Shown: one piece after another, positions 5,961 to 17,748 of the stretch
How the letters are laid out: every line of letters begins with the position of its first letter
How positions within the stretch are numbered: the stretch's first letter is position 1
Assembly (NCBI GenBank): GCA_942492765.1
Contig: OW818634.1
Location: 729,159-793,158 of the forward strand
Source of the DNA: an uncultured bacterium
GTDB taxonomy: Bacteria > Patescibacteriota > Patescibacteriia > Patescibacteriales > UBA12465
Length of the DNA stretch: 64,000 bases
Direction: 5' to 3'
The notes under the pieces: generated by a model
The model's database searches: none
Seen by the model: only the letters and a program-made list of their open reading frames with translations
What the model was told of the DNA's origin: nothing
Position numbers and translations under genes: made by a program

Positions 5961-8315
5961 ATGAAATTGAAGCTTAATCTCAAATTTTCTAAGAGCTTAT
6001 CCGCTGATTCTGCGAGAGAAGTGCTCGATCTGCTGATCGAAGCCTCTTATCTAGCAGCGATTTTCTTGGTACCCCTATGGTTCGCCTATTTTTTTCCGAC
6101 CTATAATATCTTTGAATTCAATAAGCTTATCGTCTTTAAGATACTAGTCTGGCTCTTATTCCTGTTTACTTCCTTGAAGATAATTTTCTTCTATTCTCAT
6201 TTCCGCTTTCCTCTCCGCGCCTTTTTTAAAAAATATTGGGTTTGGCCCGCGGTTTTTATCGCCGGGCTGAGCTCTACTCTCTTTTTTTCTGATAATCCGT
6301 TGCTAAGCTTTTATGGGACCATCGAGAGACAGGGCGGTCTAGTATCTTATTTATACTATTTTTTCTGGTTCATCCTGTTAAGCTTTAATCTCTTGACTGT
6401 CGATAACCATCGGCCGCGAGAAGCTGATAGCAAGGGAAAGAAAACTAGGCGGGCAGCCGCCGCAGCTGTCATTTCCGCCGCGCTCGTCTCGGCTTATGGA
6501 ATACTTCAGATCTTAAATATCGATTTTATCAGCTGGCCCGAAGCCCCCTTTCTGACTAACCGAGCCCTGTCCACTTTCGGGCAGCCGAATTTTCTAGCTT
6601 CATGGCTATTGCTGATCATTCCCCTGAGCCTATATTTAGGTTATAGTTCCCGCCGCTTCTTAGTTAGATCTTTTTATTTCCTGGCTGCCGCCATGGAGGT
6701 AATCTGCCTGGCTATGACTGGTAGTCGGGGCGGCCTCTTAGCCTTGTTTTTTGTCGGCGGCCTCTATTTGGTCTATCTGTTCTTTACGGCCGCTTGGCCG
6801 CGTCGACGGAAGTTTTTCATTGGAATATCGTTTGTTCTAATATCCGTTGTTTCTTTATTAGCGGTCAATAAGATTTGGCCAGCGCGTATTAGCGATATCT
6901 TTGATTATAAGTCAGGCAGCGTGGGCGCGCGTGCTAATTTTTATTCAGCGGCCGCCGATGCGGTCAAAGGAAAACCCTTATTCGGCTACGGCTTAGAGGG
7001 AGGCAATGATATATTCATCAAATATTATGAACGAGATTGGGCAGTCTATGGCGACGTCGGCCAATCAGCCGACAGAGCGCACAATATTGTTTTCGATATT
7101 CTTTTAAGCGTCGGGTCTTATGGCTTGATACTTTTTCTGATCCTTTATTATTTCTTCTTTTCGTTAGCCAAGGATAATATAAAGAGGAAGAATGATCTCT
7201 TTTCCTTAGCATTGGTATTAGGCGCAACTGCTTATCTTTTTTCTCTCCTTTTCAGCTTTGCTATTGTTGCCGGAGAAGCTTATTTCTGGTTTTTCTTAGC
7301 GCTCTTAGCAGTCATTAATCATGAAGCGGACGAAACTGCGGGCAAGAAGAGCTGGTTGAACCTGTTCGTTAGATTATTCAGGCGTGACAGGATAAAAATC
7401 GTGGCAAGGATTCTGATAGCCGCAATTTTTTTAGCCCTGTCTTGCTGGCAGATCTCAAGAGCTTTTCGGTCTTTGGCGGCTGACTATTATTTCAATAAGA
7501 TTTATTTTATACTCGCCCAGCCGGATTATTTTACTGCCCTGACTCTTGATAGTTATTTGAAAGAACAGCAAGCTAACCCCATCAATCAGGCGTCTTATGA
7601 TTATTTTTGGGGCGAAAAGCTGAGTGAATTTTATCCGACTATCGACGAATTAGCCGTTAAGAAAGTCGTGGCGGAGAAGATGCGGGAAGTCGAAGCATCG
7701 CTGCCGGCTAAAGGCTATAAGAATCTGTTAGTTAAAGCTAAGATAAATAATGCTCTAGGAGCTTATACGTTAGCGCAGATTTATCTGGACAAGGTGATAG
7801 AGATAGCGCCTCATTGGCCGCTTGTCTATCTGGAAAGGGGCAAAGCTTCTCTTAACCAGAAAGATTTTAAGAGAGCACTGGTTGCTTATAATTTGGCTTT
7901 GGTAAATTTGCCGGCGACAGATGACAGCCGCCTTAATGATCCGCACCGCGAATTGATTCGACGTTACCAGTATTTCATTTATAGCAATATCGGGGCGATA
8001 TATGAGCAGGATAAAAATTACGCCGCCGCTGAAAAATATTTTAAGTTAGCGTATCAAAGCGATCCCTCCGACTTCGTCTTGCTAAAGAGGATGGCGGATA
8101 TGGAATATCGGCAGGGAAATATCGGGAAGGCAATAGGATATACGGAACATGGATTAGCTCGCAACCCGTCTGATTATAAATGGGAAGTCGCTTTAGCGTC
8201 TTTATATTATGAAAGCGGTGATAAGAAAAGCGCCGCCAGTCATATAGAAAAAGCCTTGTTGCTAGCTCCAGATGAACAAGAGATTATAGAATTGGAGAAA
8301 TCTTATAGGAAATAA
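5961..8315 (+). CDS. O-antigen ligase/polymerase-like (Wzy_C-type) polytopic membrane protein fused to C-terminal TPR repeats
   Basis: 784 aa with many TM helices. Has GSRGG and a RAHN..FDILLSVG motif as in O-antigen ligase family proteins. The C-terminal third has TPR-like A/Y/L periodicity. Confidence 0.7.
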   Translation: MKLKLNLKFSKSLSADSAREVLDLLIEASYLAAIFLVPLWFAYFFPTYNIFEFNKLIVFKILVWLLFLFTSLKIIFFYSHFRFPLRAFFKKYWVWPAVFIAGLSSTLFFSDNPLLSFYGTIERQGGLVSYLYYFFWFILLSFNLLTVDNHRPREADSKGKKTRRAAAAAVISAALVSAYGILQILNIDFISWPEAPFLTNRALSTFGQPNFLASWLLLIIPLSLYLGYSSRRFLVRSFYFLAAAMEVICLAMTGSRGGLLALFFVGGLYLVYLFFTAAWPRRRKFFIGISFVLISVVSLLAVNKIWPARISDIFDYKSGSVGARANFYSAAADAVKGKPLFGYGLEGGNDIFIKYYERDWAVYGDVGQSADRAHNIVFDILLSVGSYGLILFLILYYFFFSLAKDNIKRKNDLFSLALVLGATAYLFSLLFSFAIVAGEAYFWFFLALLAVINHEADETAGKKSWLNLFVRLFRRDRIKIVARILIAAIFLALSCWQISRAFRSLAADYYFNKIYFILAQPDYFTALTLDSYLKEQQANPINQASYDYFWGEKLSEFYPTIDELAVKKVVAEKMREVEASLPAKGYKNLLVKAKINNALGAYTLAQIYLDKVIEIAPHWPLVYLERGKASLNQKDFKRALVAYNLALVNLPATDDSRLNDPHRELIRRYQYFIYSNIGAIYEQDKNYAAAEKYFKLAYQSDPSDFVLLKRMADMEYRQGNIGKAIGYTEHGLARNPSDYKWEVALASLYYESGDKKSAASHIEKALLLAPDEQEIIELEKSYRK

Positions 8316-12001: not shown

Positions 12002-13192
12002 ATGGCTGAAGTTAAACCAGAAATCGAGACATTCGCAAAGATAAAAGTAGTCGGCGTCGGCGGCGGCGGCGGAAGTGCTGTCAACCGCATGATCGCTAAT
12101 GGCATCAAGGGTGTCGGCTTCGTGGCTATAAACACTGATGTCCAGGCTTTGCATTATAATAAGGCCTCAGAGAAGATTCATATCGGCAAGACCGTGACCA
12201 GAGGCTTGGGGGCGGGCATGAACCCCGACCTAGGCAAGGGCGCGGCTGAAGAGTCTCAGAACGAAATCCGCGAAGTCCTGAAGGATTGCGATATGGTCTT
12301 TATTACTTGCGGCCTAGGCGGCGGCACCGGTTCTGGCGCCTCCCCTATCGTCGCTCAGATCGCTAAGGATCTGGGAGCTTTGACCGTGGCCGTAGTTACT
12401 AAGCCTTTTATGTTTGAAGGCGGCCAGCGCAAGAATATCGCCGATCGGGCCTATTCCGAGCTCGCTGATAAGGTTGATACGATCATCACTATCTCTAATG
12501 ATAAATTATTGCAGGTAATTGATAAGAGAACTTCTCTTTTGGATGCTTTTAAGATAGCTGATGACGTTCTGCGCCAAGGTGTCCAGGGAATCGCCGAAAT
12601 CATCACTGTCCCGGGCATCATCAATGCCGACTTTGCCGACGTTAAGGCGGTTATGGCTAATGCCGGTTCCGCTCTTATGGGTATCGGTACCGCTACGGGC
12701 GAAAATAAGGCCGTAGAAGCGGCTAAGGACGCTATCAACTCAAGTCTCTTGGATATGTCTATCGACGGCGCCAGAGGCATCGTATTCACGATTACGGGCG
12801 GTCCAGACTTGAGCATGACTGAAGTCAGTGAAGCGGCTAAGGTGATCACTTCCGCGGCCGATGAAGATGCTAAGATTATCTTCGGCGCTGTCGTTGACGA
12901 TAAGATGAAAGATTCTATCAAGATCACGGTCGTAGCAACAGGTTTTGACGGCCATGGCAAGAGCCAGAAGAGCGAATCCTTGAAGACCTATACTCCTAAT
13001 ACCTTTATCGCCGAGAAAGAGAATGAGCAAGAGTCTAGCTCGACCTTGAATATCGATAAGAATAAGAATAAATTCTCAGTTTTCAAGAATATCCCGATTA
13101 AGCCGGCCTTAGAGAAGAAAGCCGAGAAGCCGACTATTGATGAGGATGATGATTTGAGCGTGCCGGCATTTATTAGGAAGAAAATGGGGTAG
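12002..13192 (+). CDS. ftsZ: Cell division GTPase FtsZ
   Basis: GVGGGGGSAVNRM and the tubulin signature GGGTGSG are present. C-terminal conserved peptide DDDLSVPAFIRKK. Confidence 0.97.
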   Translation: MAEVKPEIETFAKIKVVGVGGGGGSAVNRMIANGIKGVGFVAINTDVQALHYNKASEKIHIGKTVTRGLGAGMNPDLGKGAAEESQNEIREVLKDCDMVFITCGLGGGTGSGASPIVAQIAKDLGALTVAVVTKPFMFEGGQRKNIADRAYSELADKVDTIITISNDKLLQVIDKRTSLLDAFKIADDVLRQGVQGIAEIITVPGIINADFADVKAVMANAGSALMGIGTATGENKAVEAAKDAINSSLLDMSIDGARGIVFTITGGPDLSMTEVSEAAKVITSAADEDAKIIFGAVVDDKMKDSIKITVVATGFDGHGKSQKSESLKTYTPNTFIAEKENEQESSSTLNIDKNKNKFSVFKNIPIKPALEKKAEKPTIDEDDDLSVPAFIRKKMG

Positions 13193-13221
13193 GCTATAGT
13201 AGAAATTCAGCTTATTTAGAG

Positions 13222-13248
13222 CCGCTATCTGGAAAGATGGCGGTTTTT
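13222..13248 (+). terminator. Rho-independent terminator after ftsZ
   Basis: Stem CCGCTATCT / AGATGGCGG (one G.U) with loop GGAA, followed by TTTTT. Confidence 0.7.
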
Positions 13249-13345
13249 GCTATCTTGACGGTTTATTTTAAATATATTATTATTTTATGAATTTGTCCTT
13301 TTAAAATGCTACCAGAGCGGTTTCTGGGAATTAAGAGATACAGCC

Positions 13346-14149
13346 ATGCGGTACTATAACGAAATAATCAAGACTTCGCGATTCTCCTACGCTAAAGGTT
13401 ATCTTGGCCCTAATCCTATTGTTGATCAGGCAAGACTGATTGGGGAGCTTTTTAAGCTTGATACCGGCCCCGCCCTTTTATTAGCGGAGAACTTATCTGT
13501 CGCCTTGCCTAATGGCGCAGAGGGGTGGTTTGCCAGACCCAAGGAGTCAGCGTTAGCGAGAGAACATTTCCCTGATATTGAAGATAAGCGAGTTCAGCAT
13601 TGCGAGGCTACGAAATTAGCCTTAGAGATGCTGAAAACGCGACGTCATCTCTTTGATGCGCTGGCAGACGACATTGCGCCTAATAAATTGCGGCCCAATG
13701 AGTTGTCGGCCTATGCCATGGCTATCATTGAAGATGAGCAGCCAGGGGATATAGTGATTTTTCCAGCCCAATTTGGCGCTCGCTATAGAGGCCATTCAGA
13801 CAGATTATCCCTGGAGATTATGAATAAGGGAAATCGTGAATTTGGCTTAGATATATTTTCGCTGGCCTGCATGACTTTATGCCACGATAATATTCTCCGA
13901 GCCAAGGAAGAGCTGGGTTTTATTTGTGCCGGGGATGAGTTCTGCCAGGAAAAAGATATTACATTTTCGTCAGCACCCTGCCTTTTTACTTTCAATGGCT
14001 TAAGCGGGCTGATTAATGGCCTGGACAATTCCGTAGAGATGATTCCTGACGGTCGGCTGACTTTAGGGGCGGATCATTCCAGTAGTTATGCTGAGATTTT
14101 CGGAGTAGCTTCATTTTTTTTGCCGCCAATCATGGATATGCCCCAGTAA
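13346..14149 (+). CDS. Hypothetical protein, paralog A of an orphan pair
   Basis: 267-aa ORF with its own putative promoter (TTGACG-17-TATTAT at 13255-13283) and terminator. The C-terminal half aligns by eye with the next gene (shared ...EFGL..., ...AC..L..., ...CAGDE...). Confidence 0.6.
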   Translation: MRYYNEIIKTSRFSYAKGYLGPNPIVDQARLIGELFKLDTGPALLLAENLSVALPNGAEGWFARPKESALAREHFPDIEDKRVQHCEATKLALEMLKTRRHLFDALADDIAPNKLRPNELSAYAMAIIEDEQPGDIVIFPAQFGARYRGHSDRLSLEIMNKGNREFGLDIFSLACMTLCHDNILRAKEELGFICAGDEFCQEKDITFSSAPCLFTFNGLSGLINGLDNSVEMIPDGRLTLGADHSSSYAEIFGVASFFLPPIMDMPQ

Positions 14150-14173
14150 GATGCGAGACTTAAAGCTATTTCT

Positions 14174-14210
14174 AAGAGGTTCACGTTTTTAATAAACGGA
14201 ACCTCTTTTT
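14174..14210 (+). terminator. Rho-independent terminator after paralog A
   Basis: Stem AAGAGGTTC / GAACCTCTT followed by a T-run. Confidence 0.7.
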
Positions 14211-14328
14211 ATATGTTCATCTTGACAAAAGTATAGTATTATTATAAGATTCTTGGTTATTCAGTATTTTAATAATTTGATAAAAACGCAGCCAGGAGCG
14301 ATTTCTTGGCAACCAAAATCTAAATGCC

Positions 14329-15033
14329 ATGAGAAAAGTAGGCAGCAACACCAAGGTAGGATCAAATTCTGCCAATCTTCTAAGAAGCTTAGAACAAGAA
14401 CTCGCGCAATTACAGGTACTTTTTCCTGAGTTAGCACGCTTTGATTTCGATCGAAGTTATGTAGACAGGATAATCAGCGGATGGATAAAATTGCCGGCGG
14501 CCGCGACAAGATGGGCTTTAGTGTTCAATTGGGAGAGGTTTTTTGAATCATCTGAAGAGTCTATCCAATCATCGCTTTCCGCCGTTAATTCGATTCAGGA
14601 AGCTATCGGCGGCCAGTTCCGCCAAGATTTAGGCGCTGAACAGGAGATTAAGCTCTTGAAAACAAGTGCCAGAACGAAATTTGCCCTGCATCAGATCGAT
14701 CAAAGGCAAAAAGGCTTTATTTATGTCATACCGATTCGTGTAAGTCCTCCTTGTCAGGTTGGTGATTATAATGGCATCGGGAAGCTGATGGGCCGCAATG
14801 AGTTTGGCCTTGGCGTGTGCGCCACAGCCTGCTTAATGCTAGCGCAGCCGCTTGGCGCCAAGAGAAATAAGGGGCTTTACGTGGATTGTGCTGGCGACGA
14901 AAGCGTAGCCACTGGCGAAAATCCTTTCTTTTTCTTCCATGGCAAAGGCATATGGTTCTATTCCAGACAATCTAACAATACAGGTAATATCGGTGGTTAC
15001 TATACCAGGATTACTGGGTTTGTAGTCGAATAG
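14329..15033 (+). CDS. Hypothetical protein, paralog B of an orphan pair
   Basis: 234-aa ORF preceded by TTGACA at 14222-14227 and followed by a strong terminator. Shares NEFGLG, ATACLML and DCAGDES blocks with paralog A (REFGLD, SLACMTL, ICAGDEF). Confidence 0.6.
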   Translation: MRKVGSNTKVGSNSANLLRSLEQELAQLQVLFPELARFDFDRSYVDRIISGWIKLPAAATRWALVFNWERFFESSEESIQSSLSAVNSIQEAIGGQFRQDLGAEQEIKLLKTSARTKFALHQIDQRQKGFIYVIPIRVSPPCQVGDYNGIGKLMGRNEFGLGVCATACLMLAQPLGAKRNKGLYVDCAGDESVATGENPFFFFHGKGIWFYSRQSNNTGNIGGYYTRITGFVVE

Positions 15034-15050
15034 AATAGAATAATTTTTTT

Positions 15051-15080
15051 AAGCTCCGTGCAGATAACACGGAGCTTTTT
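15051..15080 (+). terminator. Rho-independent terminator after paralog B
   Basis: Perfect 10-bp stem AAGCTCCGTG / CACGGAGCTT with a 7-nt loop, then TTT. Confidence 0.8.
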
Positions 15081-15098
15081 ATATTTCTGTGGATAAGT

Positions 15099-15135: not shown

Positions 15136-15164
15136 TTGACCGGTGATTTGAATTTTGCTAAAAT
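15136..15164 (+). promoter_or_regulatory. Putative sigma70-type promoter of the nrd operon
   Basis: TTGACC, 17-nt spacer, TAAAAT. Confidence 0.5.
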
Positions 15165-15232: not shown

Positions 15233-15691
15233 ATGAAATGCCCAATCTGCTATTTTCCAGACACTAAGGTGGTCGACTCCCGGGTCGCCCCTGACGGACT
15301 GTCTATCCGCCGCCGCCGCGAATGCCTGAAATGCGGTTTCCGTTTCTCGACTTACGAGGAAATCGAGCTGCTAGACCTGGTTATCGTGAAACGGGACGGA
15401 AGGAGAGAGTCGTATAGCCGGGAAAAGATGGTGAGCGGCTTGAAAAAGTCTTGCGAGAAGAGGTCTATTACCGAGGACCGCTTCAAGAAGCTGATCCATT
15501 CTATTGAAAGAGATCTGCAGCGCCTGAAGAAGACTGAAATAACTTCCCGCCAGATCGGCCAAGCCGTCATGAAGAACCTGAAGAAGGTGGATCCTGTCGC
15601 CTATATCCGCTATGCCTCAGTTTACGAATCTTTCAAGGACGCGCACGAATTCCGCAAGGAACTGAATAAGCTTATAAATGAAAAGAAATAA
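15233..15691 (+). CDS. nrdR: Transcriptional repressor NrdR
   Basis: MKCPICYFPDTKVVDSR...CLKCGFRFSTYE zinc ribbon plus an ATP-cone. 152 aa. Confidence 0.95.
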   Translation: MKCPICYFPDTKVVDSRVAPDGLSIRRRRECLKCGFRFSTYEEIELLDLVIVKRDGRRESYSREKMVSGLKKSCEKRSITEDRFKKLIHSIERDLQRLKKTEITSRQIGQAVMKNLKKVDPVAYIRYASVYESFKDAHEFRKELNKLINEKK

Positions 15692-15696
15692 TATTT

Positions 15697-17748
15697 ATGT
15701 CTGAAACTATCAGCAAGTTAATCAAAAGATCCGGCGAAATCGTCGACTTTGATCAGGATAAGATTGGTAAGGCTATTTATAAGGCGGGTTTGGCGGTAGG
15801 CATCGATGATCGCCATTTGGCGAAGAAGCTCACTGACCAGGTGACCATGCGTTTGAATCAGAAATTTCATAAGAACAGCATTCCGGCCGTGGAAGAAGTC
15901 CAGGACATAGTAGAAGAAATCCTGATCGAGAATAAATTGATCAAGATCGCTAAGGCTTATATTCTTTATCGCGACCAGCATCGCCAATTGCGCGATATCA
16001 ATACCTCTACTTCCGACGATAAGCTCTTGGAAGATTATTTGGGCCGCGCTGATTGGCGCTTGAAAGAGAATAGCAATATGAGCTTCTCGGTTCAGGGCTT
16101 GAATAATTATATTGCCTCCTCTATCTCTGCTCGTTATTGGCTCAATAAGATGTATCCGGAAAATATCCGCCAAGCCCATATCAACGGCGATATTCATATT
16201 CATGATTTGGGCCTGCTTGCTCCTTATTGCTGCGGCTGGGATCTGAAGGATCTATTATTGCGCGGTTTCCGCGGCGTCAGCGAAAAAGTCCAGAGCAACG
16301 CGCCGAAGCATTTTCGCAGCGCGCTCGGCCAGATCATCAATTTTTTCTATACCCTTCAGGGCGAAGCGGCCGGAGCTCAGGCTTTTGCTAATTTCGATAC
16401 CTATCTCGCCCCGTTTATCCGTTATGACGAATTGAGTTTCAAGGAAGTAAAGCAGGGCTTGCAGGAATTCATGTTCAATATCAATGTCCCGACCCGCGTC
16501 GGTTTCCAGACCCCGTTCACTAACATCACTCTCGACGTGACCCCATCTCCGATGATCGGAGAAGAGAATGTGATCATCGGCGGCGAAGTCATGCCGGAAA
16601 AATATAAGGATTTTCAGCCGGAAATGGATATGTTTAATCAGGCTTTTGCCGAGGTCATGTTGGCCGGCGATTCTTCCGGTCGCGTCTTCGGCTTCCCGAT
16701 TCCGACTTATAATATTGATAAGGATTTTGATTGGGACAGAGAATGCTTGAAACCGGCCTGGGAGATGACTGCTAAATACGGTATTCCTTATTTCTCCAAT
16801 TTCGTGAATTCTGATATGAACCGCGACGATGCCCGTTCAATGTGCTGCCGCCTGAGGCTTGATAACCGCGAGTTGCGCAAGCGCGGCGGCGGATTATTCG
16901 GCGCCAATCCTCTGACCGGATCCCTTGGAGTCGTGACTCTGAATCTGGCTAGAGTGGGTTACTTATCTAAGAGCAAGGAAGAATTCAAGGAGCGCATCTT
17001 CAAGTTGATGGAGATATCGAAGGAGAGCTTAGAAATCAAGCGCAAGATCATCGAGAAGTTTACGGAAGATCGCCTCTATCCTTACTCGATGTTCTATCTC
17101 GAGAATATCAAAGCCCATTTCGGGACTTACTGGAAGAATCATTTCTCAACTATCGGCATCAATGGCATGAATGAAGCAGCCCTGAATCTTATGGGTAAAG
17201 ATATCTCTACCCCGGAGGGCCATGCTTTTGCCGCTGAGATCCTCGATTTCATGCGCGAGAAACTGATGGATTTCCAGAACGAGACCAATAATCTCTATAA
17301 CCTGGAAGCGACCCCGGGCGAGGGCTGCACTTATCGCTTTGCTAAGAAAGACCAGCAGCTTTATCCAGGCATAATCTGCGCTAATACCGAAGCGGTCAAG
17401 CGTCAGCATGCCGATCCTTACTATACGAATTCGACTCATTTGCATGTTAATTTCTCCGAGGATATCTTTTCCGCTCTTGATCTCCAAGATGATTTGCAGA
17501 CGAAGTATACCGGCGGCACTGTTCTTCATGGTTATTTAGGGGAGCGCTTGCCTGACGGCGATACGGCTAAGAAATTAGTCAAAAAGATCGTCGAATCTTA
17601 TCGCTTGCCTTATTTCACCATCACCCCGACTTTCTCGATTTGTCCGAAACACGGCTACCTGTCTGGCGAGCATAAGTATTGCCCTAAATGCGACGAGGAA
17701 ATCGGCTATAAAGAGAGCGTCGCCGAGGTTCGCGCCGCTAATCAGTAA
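15697..17748 (+). CDS. nrdD: Anaerobic ribonucleoside-triphosphate reductase (class III) large fragment, lacking the glycyl-radical loop
   Basis: N-terminal ATP-cone, class III RNR core and a C-terminal zinc motif CPKH-x9-CPKC. The ORF ends at TAA 17746-17748 before any RxxGY-type glycyl radical motif. Confidence 0.9.
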   Translation: MSETISKLIKRSGEIVDFDQDKIGKAIYKAGLAVGIDDRHLAKKLTDQVTMRLNQKFHKNSIPAVEEVQDIVEEILIENKLIKIAKAYILYRDQHRQLRDINTSTSDDKLLEDYLGRADWRLKENSNMSFSVQGLNNYIASSISARYWLNKMYPENIRQAHINGDIHIHDLGLLAPYCCGWDLKDLLLRGFRGVSEKVQSNAPKHFRSALGQIINFFYTLQGEAAGAQAFANFDTYLAPFIRYDELSFKEVKQGLQEFMFNINVPTRVGFQTPFTNITLDVTPSPMIGEENVIIGGEVMPEKYKDFQPEMDMFNQAFAEVMLAGDSSGRVFGFPIPTYNIDKDFDWDRECLKPAWEMTAKYGIPYFSNFVNSDMNRDDARSMCCRLRLDNRELRKRGGGLFGANPLTGSLGVVTLNLARVGYLSKSKEEFKERIFKLMEISKESLEIKRKIIEKFTEDRLYPYSMFYLENIKAHFGTYWKNHFSTIGINGMNEAALNLMGKDISTPEGHAFAAEILDFMREKLMDFQNETNNLYNLEATPGEGCTYRFAKKDQQLYPGIICANTEAVKRQHADPYYTNSTHLHVNFSEDIFSALDLQDDLQTKYTGGTVLHGYLGERLPDGDTAKKLVKKIVESYRLPYFTITPTFSICPKHGYLSGEHKYCPKCDEEIGYKESVAEVRAANQ

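Follow-up and report, generated by a model that had tools for sequence, protein, structure and literature searches.

What are the two genes that separate ftsZ from nrdR in a genome of the candidate phyla radiation (CPR, or Patescibacteria), and how did they come to lie there? The question is raised by a 64,000-nucleotide stretch of contig OW818634.1 from an uncultured bacterium of the Patescibacteriota (the window, meaning here that whole stretch), in which gene A (13346–14149; 267 aa, protein P0001) is followed by gene B (14329–15033; 234 aa, protein P0003); coordinates are those of the window and refer to its + strand unless noted. The initial annotation had both open reading frames (ORFs), their lengths and their ftsZ and nrdR flanks exactly, and described them as paralogous orphans that belong to no assignable family and carry a possible catalytic or metal-binding core. 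Comparison with other genomes points to a different identity: A and B are highly diverged members of a family of proteins targeted by diversity-generating retroelements (DGRs), and they are probably (we would put it at roughly 0.7) fixed, former DGR target paralogs in which the once variable surface is now frozen.

Family membership and size

The paralogy of A and B, proposed from an alignment by eye, holds up: BLASTP aligns residues 115–198 of A with residues 110–191 of B at 29% identity (E = 2e-5 in a single comparison), a weak but real similarity. A hidden Markov model (HMM) built from 86 family genes of other genomes also recognizes both, A with E = 6.5e-48 over residues 3–260 and B with E = 1.8e-14 over residues 19–219. 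The match to the family profile therefore spans almost the whole of both proteins, and the view that their N-terminal halves are unrelated has to be abandoned; family alignments reveal an N-terminal motif common to A and B (Q..L..LFP(E)L ... LP.GAEGW). Close relatives were retrieved by a word-indexed search (P0002, 85% identical to A; P0004 and P0005, 76–77% identical to B), a profile of these led to four distant relatives, and an exhaustive HMM search with that profile returned 1,722 representative clusters (at 50% identity), almost all from Patescibacteria, at E ≤ 1e-3, 1,459 at E ≤ 1e-10 and 616 at E ≤ 1e-30. In a scan of one genome per species, 189 loci encode a relative, nearly all of them in metagenome-assembled genomes of Patescibacteria (Saccharibacteria, Parcubacteria, Berkelbacteria and others). 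A and B are thus no orphans; they are divergent tandem paralogs in a large, CPR-specific family.

Six near-invariant or fully invariant columns of the family (Q132, G167, L168, C194, G196 and D197 across 43 diverse members) are kept in A and B, and so are the scaffold motifs Q..G.I...P, EFGL and DCAGDE, the last directly preceding the variable repeat discussed below. Both proteins are short-form members without the 70–100-aa N-terminal extension found in the common form of about 300 aa. Gene B is very diverged, with only about 27–29% identity to any canonical member, and it has lost the basic motif of the family (RHRGRSVRRAR). In gene A the conserved scaffold occupies 13745–13942 (residues 134–199; GDIVIFPAQFG ... 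EFGLD ... CAGDEF) and includes the block aligned by eye earlier; its counterpart in gene B lies at 14713–14901 (residues 129–191; GFIYVIPIR ... EFGLG ... CAGDE).

The absence of a clear match to any well-characterized family, by sequence or by fold, was borne out. No Pfam family matches A or B at E ≤ 1, Pfam and NCBIfam gave no meaningful match among A, B and 43 diverse members, none of the nine closest members matched a PHROG or PADLOC model, two family profiles gave only noise against PDB sequences, and a tblastn search with a member close to the consensus found nothing among the phages of INPHARED or the plasmids of PLSDB. Where family members are named in their source annotation, they are called 'hypothetical protein'. 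The orphan label can thus be replaced by an identity: the two proteins belong to an apparently major CPR DGR target family, which numbers over 1,700 clusters (50% identity) and is not represented by any model of Pfam, NCBIfam, PHROGs or PADLOC.

Two unusual members were also seen. P0010 (478 aa), the top match of the exhaustive search, consists of two complete family units fused in tandem, with DCAGDE changed to DAPGDE in the first unit. P0008 (226 aa, with an extra C-terminal tail of about 27 aa) is encoded in L003 (1–10177 of a 21-kb Logan SRR21686418 contig) within a phage-like array of many small co-oriented ORFs, including a ParB_N and N6_N4 methyltransferase fusion; no reverse transcriptase (RT) was seen in the stretch fetched around it.

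A family of DGR variable proteins

At a distance of 300–400 bp from the family gene there are short pseudo-ORFs whose translations correspond to its C-terminal ~48 residues in an Asn-rich and unusually conserved version (PDADGDFSNAPYFNFNDGKVKFNTNWVSNANDNYGSASGF). At the nucleotide level, the last ~130 nt of the gene (the variable repeat, VR) matches a non-genic repeat (the template repeat, TR) at 78–91% identity in 45 genes from 41 loci. Mismatches between VR and TR fall at template adenines in 809 of 865 cases, and without exception in 32 of the 45 genes (e.g., 22/22 in L012, 25/25 in L015, 26/26 in L036 and 29/29 in L067). The TR is adjoined by a bAvd-like gene (PF22296, E from 1e-16 to 1e-19) and by a reverse transcriptase gene (RVT_1, E from 1e-20 to 1e-24), the RT being present in 40 loci and Avd in 39. 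The adenine-directed mismatches together with the adjoining bAvd and RT genes identify the family as a DGR variable-protein family.

The VR begins directly after the invariant DCAGDE block, which explains why an earlier reader could align this block and the framework after it. That alignment joined two different things: its CAGDE part is scaffold and the F.F.G part that follows is the framework of the former VR. The conservation of CAGDE is no evidence for a catalytic core: it is a family-wide invariant scaffold block which ends exactly where the VR begins. Additionally, seven other loci have two family genes in tandem (40–47% identity, spacers of 170–600 bp), and in four of them (L012, L025, L065 and L071) one TR templates both members; a layout with two genes is therefore a usual form of this DGR.

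Behind canonical genes stands an inverted repeat that is conserved and CTTG-periodic; in TR-bearing loci the 70 nt concerned contain CTTG or CTCG a median of 5 times. It is imperfect and comes directly after the stop codon in most of these loci (...CCTTGA...CTTGAAT.CTTGGATCTTTTGAC.CCTTGTC..TTGATCCTTG..., with CTTG or CTCG every ~10 nt; for example L046 6685–6750, L078 5457–5525, L036 6664–6730 and L059 5334–5400), and it is probably the target-recognition (cruciform) element of this DGR lineage.

DGR variable proteins of CPR bacteria are already known from surveys. For the CPR-restricted DGRs (clade 2), the targets were reported to show no recognisable domain (Roux et al., 2021; PMC8144416), and VRs from CPR were placed in the 'unknown VR' classes UVR1–6 (Wu et al., 2018; PMC5758913). 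The pair in the window belongs with these targets by full-length profile homology and resembles them in the absence of a signal peptide, transmembrane segment or recognisable domain, in the C-terminal position of the (former) VR and in the tandem arrangement, which the active cassettes with a shared TR also have. It differs by having no TR, Avd or RT in 64 kb, no repeat after the VR and no TR-like sequence, and gene A carries an insertion. What is new is the A/B pair itself, unusually diverged and DGR-less.

Several further observations concern the DGR cassettes in other genomes. In L034, a TR-like repeat at 7067–7197 shows A-directed mismatches only (17/17), and RT and Avd are absent for about 6 kb on either side; this may be a DGR whose RT is missing or distant. 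The Rfam LOOT RNA (RF03000, 69–86 bits against a gathering score of 46.4) was found in 5 of 19 family loci that were scanned for it, each time only a few kb from the DGR cassette (L078 5639–5762, L046 6880–6999, L081 9855–9967, L049 10618–10741 and L019 10243–10364), and there is none in the window; this RNA may be linked to CPR DGR cassettes or to their carrier element. Serine-recombinase-like genes (…YARKSTDDKDKQVRSLPDQ…) lie near the cassettes in nine loci (e.g., L049 10860–12515 and L065 3644–4459), and tRNA genes are close to them in L012, L016, L028, L036, L037, L078 and L088; this suggests that the DGR cassettes ride on integrative elements.

The DGR signature in genes A and B

No RT, Avd or TR was found when the entire 64 kb, about 7% of a genome reported as 895,742 bp, were searched in six frames with unfiltered HMMs. 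No RT or Avd match below E = 1 occurs in the window or in the loci of two related strains (L001 and L002). A TR specific to A or B was looked for in the 64 kb by blastn, by six-frame HMM and by a regular expression that allows the VR base or A at each position, and none was found; the last test gave 33 matches in the positive control L012.

The VR-equivalents have themselves moved away from the family. In gene A (13943–14146, residues 200–267, 68 codons) the framework FS.AP..F.F.G ... G.AS.FLP is kept, and an insertion of about 17–24 aa splits the HMM alignment, the segment being no longer TR-like; in gene B (14902–15030) the canonical VR length of 43 codons is kept, and likeness to the TR is lost as well. 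When only the positions other than template adenines are considered, cognate VRs are 100% identical to their TR and non-cognate canonical VRs 73.5% (5–95% range, 64–85%), compared to 53% for A, 48% for B and 44% for a shuffled-B control. The 70 nt after A and after B contain no CTTG or CTCG, against the median of 5 in TR-bearing loci, and plain terminators with T-runs stand in place of the CTTG-periodic repeat. The hairpins after A and B were considered as DGR cruciform elements, and this was discarded in view of their T-runs and the absence of the family repeat.

The three strains (the window, L001 and L002), whose DNA is 86–90% identical, give no sign of ongoing diversification. The VR-equivalent of B is about 90% identical among the three, with mostly synonymous changes, and that of A is about 90% identical to its counterpart in L002, with ordinary changes. 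Hypervariation confined to adenines was not seen in the VR between the three strains, where the changes were ordinary or at third positions. The comparison with active cassettes yields criteria that can be reused to distinguish diversified from retired copies in this family, namely a TR that follows the adenine rule, the CTTG-periodic repeat after the VR, and likeness to the TR at positions other than adenine.

Selection and maintenance

The ratio of nonsynonymous to synonymous substitution rates (dN/dS) is 0.09 for A (against L002) and 0.11–0.125 for B (three strains), both at dS 0.6–1.3. The corresponding values are 0.05 for pilD, 0.01–0.03 for nrdR and 0.007–0.008 for ftsA and ftsZ. Selection on A and B is weaker than on these housekeeping neighbours and clearly purifying. 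The reading frames are intact in the three strains, and a dN/dS of about 0.1 speaks against A and B being pseudogenes. The high divergence of the A and B proteins beside an FtsZ that is 99.5% identical in L001 reflects looser constraint over a dS of ~0.5–1 and no hypermutation. In L001 the first position is occupied by a much more divergent family protein of 224 aa that shares about 24% identity with A and is recognized by the HMM at E = 1.1e-17, which reflects either turnover or very fast divergence.

The predicted fold

The AlphaFold2 model of A, computed from a 43-sequence alignment, is confident (pLDDT 90.4, pTM 0.90). Its N-terminal part is alpha/beta; towards the C-terminus follows a beta-alpha-alpha-beta-beta-beta-beta unit (residues ~134–262). 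Foldseek found nothing at E < 0.9 in PDB (with a shallow model of pLDDT 66 and the good model of pLDDT 90) or in BFVD (with the good model). The top weak matches are lectin-like: LOX-1 in PDB for the shallow model and, for the good model, an entry of a thrombomodulin complex with the human cytomegalovirus (HCMV) Pentamer, 7t4r_A, which is the best PDB match (E = 1.7; TM-score 0.42 on the target). In BFVD, herpesvirus UL45 ranked fourth.

The DGR variable proteins Mtd (Bordetella phage BPP-1), TvpA (Treponema denticola), AvpA (Nanoarchaeota) and TaqVP (Thermus aquaticus) share the fold of C-type lectins (CLec), and a divergent CLec fold was expected by Roux et al. for domains of this kind (PMC8144416). 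They share with the relatives of A and B a C-terminal, adenine-templated region of about 45 residues and conserved framework residues at both ends of the VR, and the predicted order of strands and helices in residues ~134–262 of A is compatible with a CLec-like domain. On the other hand, no solved DGR variable protein appears in the PDB match lists, in which the best match is the one given above. Alignment of the family with Mtd by hhalign gave a probability of 0.1%, and the Pfam profiles FGE-sulfatase, DUF1566 and Lectin_C matched neither A nor B (E ≤ 1) nor any of the 43 members (E ≤ 0.01). A divergent CLec fold is possible on the basis of the model.

More speculatively, the family could be a DGR diversification scaffold that does not have the C-type lectin fold, with the pair in the window as 'frozen' variants kept after loss of the retroelement; we regard this combination as rather doubtful. 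If it were true, the family would represent a new architecture for tolerating massive variation, and a binding specificity evolved by a DGR would have been domesticated into a fixed cellular function next to division genes. A confident predicted fold that has no solved counterpart makes the family a reasonable subject for structure determination.

A probable history of the pair and its alternatives

Canonical members combine an N-terminal alpha/beta region with the scaffold (…PAQFG.RHRGRSVRRAR…EFGLG…MLLTHPERL…DCAGDE), followed by a VR of ~131 nt which the neighbouring TR, bAvd and RT rewrite at adenine-templated positions, giving a hypervariable C-terminal surface presumably used for ligand binding. 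In the history that we favour, the pair in the window would descend from such DGR targets and now sits as a 1.9-kb insertion that lacks the diversification apparatus and its cis elements; the former variable regions, now fixed and with indels, are under purifying selection like the rest of each gene, and each gene would be expressed from its own promoter and terminator. By analogy with other DGR targets, A and B would be binding proteins with frozen specificity, and we infer that they are no longer acted upon by a DGR from another part of the genome. Former targets can thus persist under purifying selection, which bears on the role of DGR-evolved proteins in tiny genomes.

A number of points weigh against this history. 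The predicted fold matches no solved DGR variable protein, and the putative ligand-binding role is drawn from general DGR biology. The grouping of A, the 224-aa variant of L001 and B in one clade may be due to long-branch attraction, and the two genes may not go back to one local duplication. A DGR located beyond the 64 kb searched, with its own very diverged TR, could act on A and B: some DGRs have documented targets at distances above 100 kb, a point which the same survey weakens since it found none for CPR DGRs (PMC5758913). Among family loci that are flanked by 2.5 kb or more on either side, about one third likewise have no local RT; DGR-less members are therefore common, and absence from the neighbourhood is not decisive by itself.

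The last of these points lead to the most serious alternative, in which a DGR outside the window, with one or more diverged TRs of its own, still diversifies A and B as remote targets. DGRs can act in trans and at such distances (PMC5758913), and non-adjacent or remote targets, as in Treponema denticola, resemble the pair in the window in being family members placed away from any RT or TR (PMC5758913); moreover, local RT and Avd are absent from 21 of the family loci in which each flank measures 2.5 kb or more, many of them keeping canonical VRs and the repeat after the VR, and B retains the canonical VR length. However, remote targets are defined by differences from a TR of the A-to-N type only, and the window contains no such TR and segments unlike the family TRs. 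The VR-equivalents of A (68 codons) and B (43 codons) also differ in sequence, so that a single TR could not template the two; the IMH-like GC-rich 3′ end and the CTTG-periodic inverted repeat that follows canonical VRs are kept by neither gene; and identity to any family TR outside adenines is at the level of shuffled sequence. Together with the lack of remote targets among CPR DGRs in the 2018 survey, this makes continued action of a remote DGR improbable. Somewhat less credible again is an enzymatic or metal-binding role for A and B, with an active site made of the Cys, Asp and Glu of CAGDE and of Gln, the association of their relatives with DGRs being secondary. C194, G196, D197, E198, Q132 and G167–L168 are invariant or nearly so across the 43 members and present in both proteins, and such a function is compatible with membership in the family; but no enzyme family was matched in Pfam, NCBIfam or PDB sequences and no fold in PDB or BFVD, the motif lies at the exact 5′ edge of the VR, as would suit a structural anchor for a variable surface, and the other conserved charged motif, RHRGRSVRRAR, is lost in B. 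The far divergence from the family consensus, most extreme in B, and the dispensability of the insertion slot in relatives might also be taken to indicate that A and B are decaying, functionless remnants of a lost DGR cassette. This is very hard to reconcile with frames that are intact in three strains at dS 0.6–1.3, with dN/dS values of 0.09–0.125, with a promoter-like site and a strong terminator kept for each gene and with the confident model of A (pLDDT 90.4), and we consider it the least probable explanation by far. Fixed, former DGR targets are thus the reading that we retain.

The ftsZ–nrdR junction

The slot is bounded by ftsZ (12002–13192) on the left and by the anaerobic ribonucleotide reductase operon nrdR–nrdD (15233–17748, with nrdR at 15233–15691) on the right. 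Eighty metagenomic loci whose FtsZ is 51–95% identical to that of the window were compared. The junction, which the initial annotation had suggested checking for emptiness, is indeed empty in ten of them, namely L090 and L091, the closest relatives (95%), and eight others, with a spacer of about 180–270 bp between the two genes. Alignment with the empty sites delimits an island of 1.9 kb at ~13195–15078, after which the spacer is conserved; divergence begins right after the ftsZ stop codon. Judged by this alignment, genes A and B are an accessory insertion in a variable slot that is otherwise empty in the closest relatives. In L097, the junction holds a single canonical long-form family gene; TR and RT are absent over 17 kb, and part of the T-rich/CTTTTGA repeat survives as a remnant. 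About 13 further loci carry unrelated cargo of 0.9–5 kb, including Fic-like proteins, a response regulator with a sensor/histidine kinase, a heavy-metal P-type ATPase, flotillin-like, GMP-synthase-like and membrane proteins; cargo-bearing junctions are found in L101, L104, L106, L107, L109, L111–L115, L118 and L161.

Two ideas about the position of the island were rejected. A functional link to ftsZ was considered, and the occurrence of ftsZ within 3.5 kb of a family gene in L032 and L034 is about what chance would give in genomes of ~0.9 Mb, the junction being empty in the closest relatives. Recent transfer could not be argued from composition, as the GC content of the island (0.44–0.49 in genes) is like that of the flanks.

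The island carries its own candidate expression signals. After ftsZ, a hairpin with a T-run (13218–13250; −18.9 kcal/mol over a 58-nt stretch, z = −2.9) lies within the inserted segment and takes the place of the ftsZ terminator of the empty sites. Upstream of gene A there is a sigma-70-like promoter match (13255–13283, TTGACG-17-TATTAT, a consensus match only), and upstream of gene B another (14222–14250, TTGACA-17-TAAGAT, likewise a consensus match). Gene A is followed by an intrinsic-terminator-like hairpin with UUUUU (14174–14212; −17.4 kcal/mol, z = −6.66, with none of 200 shuffles equally stable), and gene B by a similar hairpin with a T-run (15051–15085; 10-bp stem, z = −4.3), which marks the right edge of the island at ~15078. 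The hairpins, T-runs and promoter-like pairs make it reasonable, at the level of consensus signals, to see each gene as a separately transcribed cassette with its own promoter-like site and strong terminator, in agreement with what had been proposed. No signal peptide or hydrophobic segment is visible in the sequences of A and B, which would accordingly be cytoplasmic proteins.

Two minor observations concern the nrd operon. The nrdD ORF is about 1,000–1,090 aa long in L090 (4514–7531), L098 (9868–12924) and L112 (13111–16389), compared to 683 aa in the window, a length that would fit a gene interrupted by an intein or some other insertion. Finally, the consensus of the DnaA box is TTATCCACA, and the spacer beyond the island contains a perfect match to it on the − strand (15088–15096; TGTGGATAA, the reverse complement of TTATCCACA). 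This spacer (TTTTTATATTTCTGTGGATAAGT) is conserved and is not part of the insertion, and the box stands just upstream of the promoter-like site of nrdR–nrdD (15136–15164). It is kept at the equivalent position in L090, L091, L092 and L097, which suggests DnaA control of the nrdR–nrdD operon in this CPR lineage.

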